A DNA stretch of 64,000 nt from Escherichia coli (GTDB lineage: Bacteria; Pseudomonadota; Gammaproteobacteria; Enterobacterales; Enterobacteriaceae). The notes beneath the pieces are model-generated. The model made no database searches. It was not told the origin of the DNA and saw nothing but the letters and a program-made list of their open reading frames with translations. Of the stretch, positions 165 to 53,534 are shown piece by piece. The position numbers were made by a program, and so were the translations under genes. Numbering within the stretch: position 1 is the first letter of the stretch; each line of letters opens with the position of its first letter. The stretch is taken from the NCBI RefSeq assembly GCF_048403405.1, contig NZ_CP183129.1; one strand, given 5' to 3'.

Positions 165-1259
<1,095 letters not shown>

Positions 1260-1277
1260 TCTCGATTGATATCGAAC

Positions 1278-6138: not shown

Positions 6139-7796
<1,658 letters not shown>

Positions 7797-28569: not shown

Positions 28570-30329
28570 TTAACCGCGTAATTCGTGCGCCCGACGAAAA
28601 CGACCTTCGTAATCGAACACTTTTTCACGCACTTGCCAGTACTGACCTTTCATGCGGGCGACGACAAAATCCGGGTGTCGCAGTAATGCTTGCTGGGCGA
28701 GGATATCAGCGGCGGTGATCCAGCGCAGAGGGATGCCCGGTGTGCGCGTATGCGGGCGGATAAAAAGCTGCTCGAAGGCGGTACGCTGAGCGGGCGTTTG
28801 CAGACGGAAACGCTCACTCACATCCGCGCCGTCTTCATCGTAATAGGTGATTTTCAACCATTCGCCTTTCTCGTCGTGCCCATGCTGCAAAGACATGCCG
28901 CTACAGCGTAATACCAGCGCGTCTTTCAGTCGTAGCGCCGCTTTTAACATATCATCCGGATCAACCAGTACGGTGTCACATTCGCGGCAGCGGCGGGCGG
29001 CAATATCGTTTTCCGCGTTACATTGCGGGCAATTTTTAAAACGGAAACGGAAATCACACTGTTCTCGATGACCGTCGTCATCTTCAAACCATCCCTGACA
29101 GCGGCGACCAAAGTGTTCAATCAATGTCCCGTCGGCGGTCGTTTTCCCCAAAAGGTGTTGGCAAAACCGCAGGCAGGGCAGAAAACCTGTACCGGAACGT
29201 TGTCACTTTTGCCTTTCGGTGTACCAACTTCCGGCGCGTAGAGATCGTGAGGGTTACCCGCATAATCAAGAATTAAGCAATCAGTCTTGCCTGGAGCGAG
29301 ACGCAGACCGCGCCCGACAATTTGTTGGTAAAGACTCACCGATTCGGTAGGGCGCAGAATAGCAATAAGATCGACGTGCGGGGCGTCAAATCCAGTGGTC
29401 AGTACCGCGACGTTGACCAGATAGCGAAAACGCTGGGCTTTAAAATCTTCAATTAACACATCGCGCTCAGCGCCGGGTGTGTCGCCAGTAATCAGTGCTG
29501 CATCTTCGGCAGGCAGCAGTCCCACTATCTCCTTGGCGTGTTCAACGGTGGCGGCGAAAATCATCACTCCTTTACGCTTTTCGGCGAACTCCATAATCTG
29601 GCTGATGATGTGCGGGGTAATACGTTGCTGTTTTTTCAGCTCGCGGTTGAGATCGGCTTCGCTGAAAAGCCCGTTACTCTGTGCCTGCAAGCGGCTGAAA
29701 TCGTATTGCACTACTGGCATATCCAGTCGTTCTGGCGGCGTCAGATAGCCGTGTTTAATCATATAACGCAGCGGCAGCTCATAAATGCAGTCACGGAAAA
29801 GGGCTTTCTCATCGCCGCGTACCATGCCGTGATAATGGAACTGGTAGATCCAGCCTTTGCCCAATCGAAAAGGCGTGGCAGTCAGCCCCAGCAGGCGTAA
29901 GTGGGGATTCACTTTTGTCAGGTGAGTGAGGATTTGCTGATACTGGCTCTCTTCATCGTCACCAATACGGTGACATTCATCGACAATCAACAGCGAAAAT
30001 TCACCCTGAAAGGCATCAAGATTACGGGCGACCGACTGCACGCTGCCAAATACCACTTTACCGTGGCTCTCTTTGCGCTTTAGCCCGGCGGCAAAAATAT
30101 CGGCTTCCAGCCCCAGCGCCTGATATTTTGCATGGTTTTGCGCCACCAGTTCTTTAACGTGTGCCAGCACCAGCACGCGACCACGCGCCAGCCGCGCCAG
30201 TTCCGCTATCACCAGGCTTTTACCTGCACCGGTGGGCAGCACGATAACGGCAGGGGTTTTATGACGACGAAAATGGTTGAGCGTGGCATCCACGGCTTCT
30301 TGCTGATATGGGCGGAGTGTAAAAATCAT
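28570..30329 (-). pseudogene. radD: ATP-dependent helicase RadD (YejH), split by a -1 frameshift at a G4A4 run (about 29142-29150)
   Basis: Two adjacent minus-strand ORFs (402 aa and 193 aa) together cover the roughly 586-aa RadD. The upstream ORF ends ...[10 protein letters not shown] where the intact protein reads ...[14 protein letters not shown], and the downstream frame begins [12 protein letters not shown]. Walker A LPTGAGKS and DECH box are present. Confidence 0.8.
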
Positions 30330-52608: not shown

Positions 52609-53534
52609 AAATTTCCCCTGAATTATTACAAATTTCCCCGGAAGTGCAGGACGCTTTAAAAAACAAAAAACCGGTTGTGGCGCTGGAATCGACCATTATT
52701 TCTCACGGGATGCCGTTCCCACAAAATGCCCAGACCGCAATTGAAGTTGAAGAAACTATTCGTAAACAGGGCGCTGTACCTGCCACTATCGCCATTATTG
52801 GCGGCGTGATGAAAGTGGGTTTAAGCAAAGAAGAAATTGAATTGCTGGGTCGTGAAGGGCATAACGTGACCAAAGTTAGTCGTCGCGATTTACCTTTTGT
52901 TGTTGCCGCCGGAAAAAATGGCGCAACTACCGTTGCTTCAACGATGATTATTGCGGCGCTTGCCGGAATTAAAGTATTTGCCACCGGGGGAATTGGTGGT
53001 GTGCATCGCGGGGCGGAACATACCTTCGATATTTCTGCCGATTTGCAAGAACTGGCAAATACTAATGTCACCGTTGTTTGTGCCGGTGCAAAATCTATTC
53101 TCGATTTAGGATTAACAACAGAATATTTAGAAACCTTCGGTGTGCCGTTAATTGGCTATCAGACAAAAGCGCTGCCTGCGTTTTTCTGCCGTACCAGCCC
53201 ATTTGAAGTTAGTATTCGCCTTGATAGTCCCACGGAAATCGCTCGTGCAATGGCGGTGAAATGGCAAAGCGGTCTGAACGGTGGCCTGGTGGTGGCAAAT
53301 CCGATCCCGGAACAGTTTGCGATGCCGGAACACACTATCAATGCGGCGATCGATCAGGCGGTAGCTGAAGCTGAAGAGCAGGGCGTTATTGGTAAAGAAA
53401 GCACACCGTTCCTGCTGGCTCGTGTTGCTGAACTGACTGGCGGTGACAGCCTGAAATCCAACATCCAGCTGGTGTTCAACAACGCCATTCTGGCGAGCGA
53501 AATTGCCAAAGAATATCAGCGTCTCGCGGGTTAA
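52596..53534 (+). CDS. psuG: Pseudouridine-5'-phosphate glycosidase PsuG (YeiN)
   Basis: 312 aa; start overlaps psuK. Confidence 0.9.
   Translation: MSELKISPELLQISPEVQDALKNKKPVVALESTIISHGMPFPQNAQTAIEVEETIRKQGAVPATIAIIGGVMKVGLSKEEIELLGREGHNVTKVSRRDLPFVVAAGKNGATTVASTMIIAALAGIKVFATGGIGGVHRGAEHTFDISADLQELANTNVTVVCAGAKSILDLGLTTEYLETFGVPLIGYQTKALPAFFCRTSPFEVSIRLDSPTEIARAMAVKWQSGLNGGLVVANPIPEQFAMPEHTINAAIDQAVAEAEEQGVIGKESTPFLLARVAELTGGDSLKSNIQLVFNNAILASEIAKEYQRLAG

Follow-up and report, generated by a model that had tools for sequence, protein, structure and literature searches.

The window, by which we mean the whole stretch of 64,000 nucleotides of Escherichia coli DNA analysed here, carries radD (yejH) on its minus strand between rsuA and rplY, in the conserved rsuA-radD-rplY order. 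The initial annotation had described the gene as split between two minus-strand ORFs, and both ORFs, together with the sequence on which that description was based, are present at the positions that it gave (Table 1), with the break at ttttGGGGaaaacg. Apart from the frameshift the two ORFs together correspond to WP_000578079.1, which identifies the gene as radD, coding for an SF2 RecQ-like repair ATPase; the same protein, 586 aa from 1761 nt, is encoded by the intact radD of M217 and GN02461. The intact RadD of a relative matches the structure PDB 6jde over residues 1-586 (E = 0), and 7r7j, 8h5y and 8h5z are further structure matches over the same residues. With a 401-base query around the lesion site, radD was matched in 5,425 of 5,426 complete E. 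coli genomes, and the best matches, at 99.8%, spanned 402 bases compared with 401 in the query.

On the minus strand, within positions 29040-29260 of the window, the site reads gccaacacc, tttt, gggg, aaaa and then cgaccgccgacgggacattgattgaacac. The tract ttttggggaaaacg corresponds to 29153..29140 of the minus strand, with T4 at 29153-29150, G4 at 29149-29146 and A4 at 29145-29142. Translation in the upstream frame is wild type through Lys396 and then leaves the RadD sequence. The downstream ORF codes for the remainder of ZF1 as well as for the complete ZF2 and CTD, and gave weak zinc-ribbon matches in Pfam.

Table 1. Features of the disrupted radD locus, in window coordinates
Feature	Position	Strand	Remarks
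radD (yejH) locus, disrupted gene	28570..30329	-	1760 nt here, 1761 nt when intact
Upstream ORF, 402 aa	29121..30329	-	RadD residues 1-396 followed by six wrong, out-of-frame residues (RPPTGH); TGA stop at 29123-29121
Downstream ORF, original radD frame, 193 aa from TTG at 29151	28570..29151	-	
Alternative downstream product, 184 aa (residues 403-586) from TTG at 29124		-	
T4-G4-A4 tract	29142..29153	-	one G gone from G5; C4 on the plus strand
G_GGA_AAA heptamer, in the zero frame	29142..29148	-	made by the deletion; X_XXY_YYZ form

The lesion in its genomic context

Aligned end to end over all 64,000 bases, the window differs from GN02461 (NZ_CP095533.1) by four mismatches and one 1-base gap. 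This sole gap was placed at 29149, within the radD tract, in agreement with the one-nucleotide deletion at a homopolymer junction that the initial annotation had proposed. A chance pattern of ORFs is excluded as the cause of the split gene, as the one gap in 64 kb falls exactly there. Intact genomes read ttt tgg ggg aaa acg (F W G K T), i.e. TTTT GGGGG AAAA, where the window has TTTT GGGG AAAA. As the intact tract contains G5 and that of the window G4, with A4 in both, the missing base is a G; of the earlier wording that one G or A was missing, the G is thus retained and the A discarded. Comparison with radD of other E. coli genomes, which had been recommended as a check, returned T4-G5-A4 as the intact tract across 5,423 complete genomes: G5 is present in at least 5,420 of them and G4 in a single one. 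The arrangement is that of a frameshift pseudogene, with an ORF intact in the relatives and a premature stop here, six codons past the lesion. The rarity of G4 among complete genomes fits sporadic slippage combined with weak purifying selection rather than a maintained polymorphism.

The run lengths elsewhere in the window agree with those of its relative. There are 236 homopolymer runs of at least 5 nt, including 65 of at least 6 nt and 10 of at least 7 nt. Their lengths equal those of GN02461 in 235 of the 236 cases, the sole exception being the radD G5; agreement covers all 65 runs of at least 6 nt and 170 of the 171 of exactly 5 nt. No pseudogene is flagged among the approx. 60 annotated genes of the homologous GN02461 region, and only radD and ompC are broken in the 64-kb window. 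Other run-length errors, the expected company of a homopolymer artefact, were not found, the radD gap being the one indel in 64 kb. With one indel and 235 of 236 runs concordant, the assembly of the window is not riddled with indel errors. The window therefore does not bear out the earlier idea that indel errors remain in the assembly, and the ompC lesion that had been cited with it is a substitution.

Differences from GN02461 were polarised with 81-base queries against complete genomes. Four changes proved private to the window in its 64 kb, namely three substitutions and one deletion. One of them lies in ompC (165-1262, plus strand), where a G to A change at 829 turns codon 222 (828-830) from TGG into TAG, leaving an OmpC of 221 aa. 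The G in question belongs to a Dcm site (CCTGG), in which it pairs with the methylated C. Dcm sites are classical hotspots of amber mutations through deamination of 5-methylcytosine, and nanopore base-callers also err there. An 81-base query carrying the amber codon had no full-length exact match in complete genomes. The amber was found in the independent read-derived contigs DRR386112, DRR388125 and SRR32369791, and one amber-bearing contig differs from five complete genomes by the amber base alone. The ompC amber looks like a real, recurrent porin-loss mutation.

A second private substitution, G to T at position 76 (plus strand), is located 89 nt upstream of the ompC ATG. It was seen in none of 5,371 genomes, and the T is absent from all ompC-amber contigs examined. 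The surrounding TTGGAT-17 nt-GAGAAT presumably represents the -35 and -10 elements of ompC; the change converts the -10 GAGAAT into GATAAT, which is nearer to consensus, and is possibly a promoter-up mutation. Such a change beside a nonsense codon in the same gene would be an odd combination. The third substitution, G to C at 53229 (plus strand) in psuG, is synonymous (GTG to GTC, Val), hence of no use as a protein marker, and occurs in none of the 482 genomes with that psuG allele region. All four private changes affect G:C pairs, although the events are few. The remaining mismatch, at 7741 in mqo, belongs to GN02461 and not to the window: GN02461 has TAA (record position 3576000), whereas the window shares AAA with 716 other genomes. 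Mqo of GN02461 is shortened (1593-nt CDS), and the window has the common allele.

A mismatch-repair mutator background was considered and rejected, since two of the four private changes are transversions and, few as the events are, this is not the transition-plus-indel signature. The notion of a strain with accumulated lesions, also raised in the initial annotation, has weak support: the 64 kb contain four private changes, and two of these lie in or just upstream of ompC. Taken together, the pattern resembles selection acting on ompC with a single sporadic slippage besides, and not general decay.

Consequences for the RadD protein

In the 402-aa fragment, the Pfam domains ResIII/DEAD (3-155) and Helicase_C (243-344) are intact. 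In the ADP-bound structure of RadD, ZF1 is liganded by Cys384, Cys387, Cys411 and Cys425, and ZF2 by Cys434, Cys437, Cys448 and Cys451 (PMC9049331). Only Cys384 and Cys387, the first knuckle of ZF1, are left in the truncated product, which lacks the other half of ZF1, the whole of ZF2 and the CTD, the domain that binds SSB and DNA. Arg428 and Lys488, key DNA contacts of RadD (PMC9821108), are absent as well; our residue numbering agrees with that study for Phe393, Lys396 and Phe407.

The CTD is the sole SSB-binding region of RadD, and a construct reduced to RD1-RD2 showed 6% of wild-type binding to branched DNA and no SSB pull-down (PMC9821108). When a radD radA double mutant was given C437A or K37R, neither allele rescued its UV sensitivity (PMC9049331). 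Among the characterised loss-of-function constructs (C437A, RD1-RD2), the 402-aa product comes close to RD1-RD2 in being without ZF2 and the CTD. It differs from that construct in that the natural allele of the window adds 13 residues of ZF1 and a nonsense tail of 6 residues. As RadD needs ZF2 and the CTD to bind DNA and SSB and to function in vivo, we infer that the truncated allele is a functional null, a prediction drawn from these constructs.

The same tract in other public genomes

A literature search for published reports of radD/yejH frameshifts gave nothing relevant. Nevertheless, the lesion is already known in the sense that a radD with this allele has been publicly annotated as 'frameshifted'. 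The entry in question is A1.S1.18 (NZ_CP146595.1, V8947_RS13195), which has G4 in a clean context and whose radD is called 'frameshifted' by PGAP. Its pseudogene has the identical G5 to G4 change in the same tract and within an identical 81-bp context. In contrast, its haplotype is another one, with 120 mismatches per 6 kb against GN02461, the near-identical relative of the window. To judge from the haplotypes, the A1.S1.18 lesion is an independent event and is not shared with the window by ancestry.

Public assemblies have the exact 402-aa truncated product in 54 index blocks, and a cluster look-up counted 46 contigs with it. Ten listed places, the window and A1.S1.18 together comprise at least seven haplotype backgrounds that are 1-3% apart. 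Since at least seven backgrounds carry G4, the sequences indicate that the G5 to G4 event is recurrent and not clonal. In ERR2348730, ERR11040485 and SRR25617741, which represent three further backgrounds, G4 is the only length difference from the nearest complete genomes, and DRR275244 has no additional indel relative to these three.

A different picture emerged from five single-contig, megabase-scale NCBI assemblies with G4, of the JAWVH* batch and CATKVG (GCA_033723915, GCA_033723895, GCA_033660265, GCA_033660195 and GCA_949813035). They contain 5-10 extra one-base homopolymer deletions per 7.2 kb and show abnormal gene lengths for yejF, yejG, bcr, rsuA and radD. Among the contigs listed with the exact truncated RadD or truncated OmpC product none matches the window, and the nearest, GCA_949813035, is set apart from it by real SNPs. 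In the five assemblies G4 is evidently a sequencing artefact, and many apparent pseudogenes in GCA_0337239xx, GCA_0336602xx and GCA_949813035 are likely to be artefactual too. The radD call and the type of change, a one-base homopolymer deletion, are the same as in the window. However, the window has no other such deletion in its 64 kb. That five long-read assemblies share G4 might suggest an exceptionally error-prone site; we rejected this idea on account of ascertainment bias, as the assemblies had been found by searching with the lesion.

Further length variants occur at the tract. The SRR30879407 contig reads G5A3. An insertion allele, G6A4, which yields a radD product of 404 aa, was present in 44 index blocks, on contigs of up to 50-200 kb. 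In the three loci examined (SRR6184851, SRR6184891 and SRR6184764, all from the one series SRR6184xxx) the G6A4 DNA is identical, and the radD frameshift was apparently inherited within a clone or within the population of one study. The G6 allele suggests that real frameshifts arise and persist at this tract. Thus, both -1 and +1 length changes are found in public data, and at least a part of these seem to be genuine mutations that were inherited.

Origin and meaning of the frameshift

We favour a genuine G5 to G4 deletion that turned radD, an accessory gene of recombination and repair, into a pseudogene, with a probability of about 0.6. The sequences show the lesion, that within its lineage it is unique to the window, and which domains it takes away, whereas a genuine mutation and an inactive product are inferred from them. 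A real mutation is preferred to an assembly error because the window is clean and because the same allele occurs in clean data elsewhere. Moreover, the two transversions and the ompC amber among the private changes are unlikely to be homopolymer artefacts and also count in favour of a real mutation. Replication slippage in the T4-G5-A4 tract probably dropped one G. Translation would then proceed normally to Lys396, add the six wrong residues and stop. The resulting product would keep the ATPase core (RecA-like domains 1 and 2), should bind neither branched DNA nor SSB, and should behave as a radD null. The phenotype is expected to be mild on its own; irradiation, chemical damage to DNA or additional defects in radA, recG or uup would be the main conditions that reveal it. 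Overall, we regard the lesion as an ordinary frameshift by homopolymer slippage, in a repair gene that is not essential.

The choice posed at the outset between a genuine inactivating mutation and a homopolymer sequencing error proved to be the right one, and the second of these deserves serious consideration although we regard it as rather doubtful. It holds that the strain is truly G5 with an intact radD and that one G was under-called in the low-complexity tract and survived polishing. The lesion is exactly of the kind that long-read platforms generate, and the same G4 is called in the long-read-type assemblies (JAWVH*, CATKVG), in which one-base deletions in homopolymers abound. Entries of NCTC type for the C-terminal RadD fragment likewise show multiple frame errors. 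G4 is nearly absent from curated complete genomes, the RefSeq complete set did not contain the genome of the window, and the Dcm motif in which the ompC G to A of the window sits is itself a context of nanopore substitution errors. On the other hand, an under-called G would be the sole indel within 64 kb, whereas the error-prone assemblies have 5-10 per 7 kb. Furthermore, errors are more likely in longer runs, yet all 65 runs of 6-8 nt are unaffected, and three other backgrounds have G4 in clean contigs derived from reads.

It is improbable, in our estimation, that T4-G5-A4 is a mildly hypermutable tract at which RadD-null variants, or variants leaky through -1 slippage on G_GGA_AAA, recur at low frequency in natural E. 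coli populations and are perhaps sometimes favoured, e.g. in clinical lineages under antibiotic stress, so that the lesions would be more than neutral noise. Antibiotic stress comes into question because the window also carries an ompC knock-out.

Very improbable, finally, is that the split gene represents a functional switch or a case of recoding, be it a phase-variable tract, -1 frameshifting at G_GGA_AAA or termination-reinitiation at a TTGA that would give a two-piece RadD. The variants G4, G6 and G5A3 of the tract all exist in public data. However, contingency tracts are typically longer than a 5-nt run, and OFF alleles amount to approx. 1 in 5,423 complete genomes. Phase variation of radD was ruled out on tract length and allele frequency, a phase-variable locus having a long tract with both lengths common.

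The heptamer is of the canonical type for -1 frameshifting, and slipping back by one base would give FWGKTTAD, the exact wild-type sequence. Yet the 93 nt downstream of it fold no better than shuffled sequences (z = +0.82), and by reading the sequence we saw no SD-like or GGAGG-like element upstream of the heptamer. The programmed -1 sites of E. coli (dnaX, IS911/IS3) combine an X_XXZ_ZZN heptamer, a form that the zero-frame G_GGA_AAA of the window fits (PMC4066793), with stimulators. The radD site differs from them in having no stimulatory structure and in an arrangement that is not conserved among relatives (1 of 5,423 genomes). Programmed -1 frameshifting was rejected for these reasons, the heptamer notwithstanding. 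In a systematic study in E. coli, motifs without a stimulator gave at most 2-10 times a background of 0.055%, i.e. frameshifting well under 1% (PMC4066793). Given such weak unstimulated motifs and no downstream structure, any full-length RadD made by slippage should stay well below 1%. The heptamer is an accidental by-product of the deletion.

A two-piece RadD could be imagined since the upstream stop overlaps a TTG of the downstream frame (TTGA, 29124-29121), which is a termination-reinitiation geometry. However, neither fragment contains a complete ZF1, and inspection of the sequence revealed no Shine-Dalgarno element at a distance likely to be usable from the downstream ORF start. The exact 184-aa downstream product is called on 358 public contigs, which reflects the behaviour of gene callers and not expression.

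Returning to the genuine deletion, a strain that carries it would be without RadD and somewhat more sensitive to DNA damage, especially together with other recombination defects. Beyond this its significance is small and lies mostly in annotation. In public data the identical radD frameshift is clearly a long-read artefact in some entries and apparently a genuine allele in others. This coexistence calls for caution over radD 'pseudogenes' reported at the T4-G5-A4 tract, which need read support before they are interpreted.
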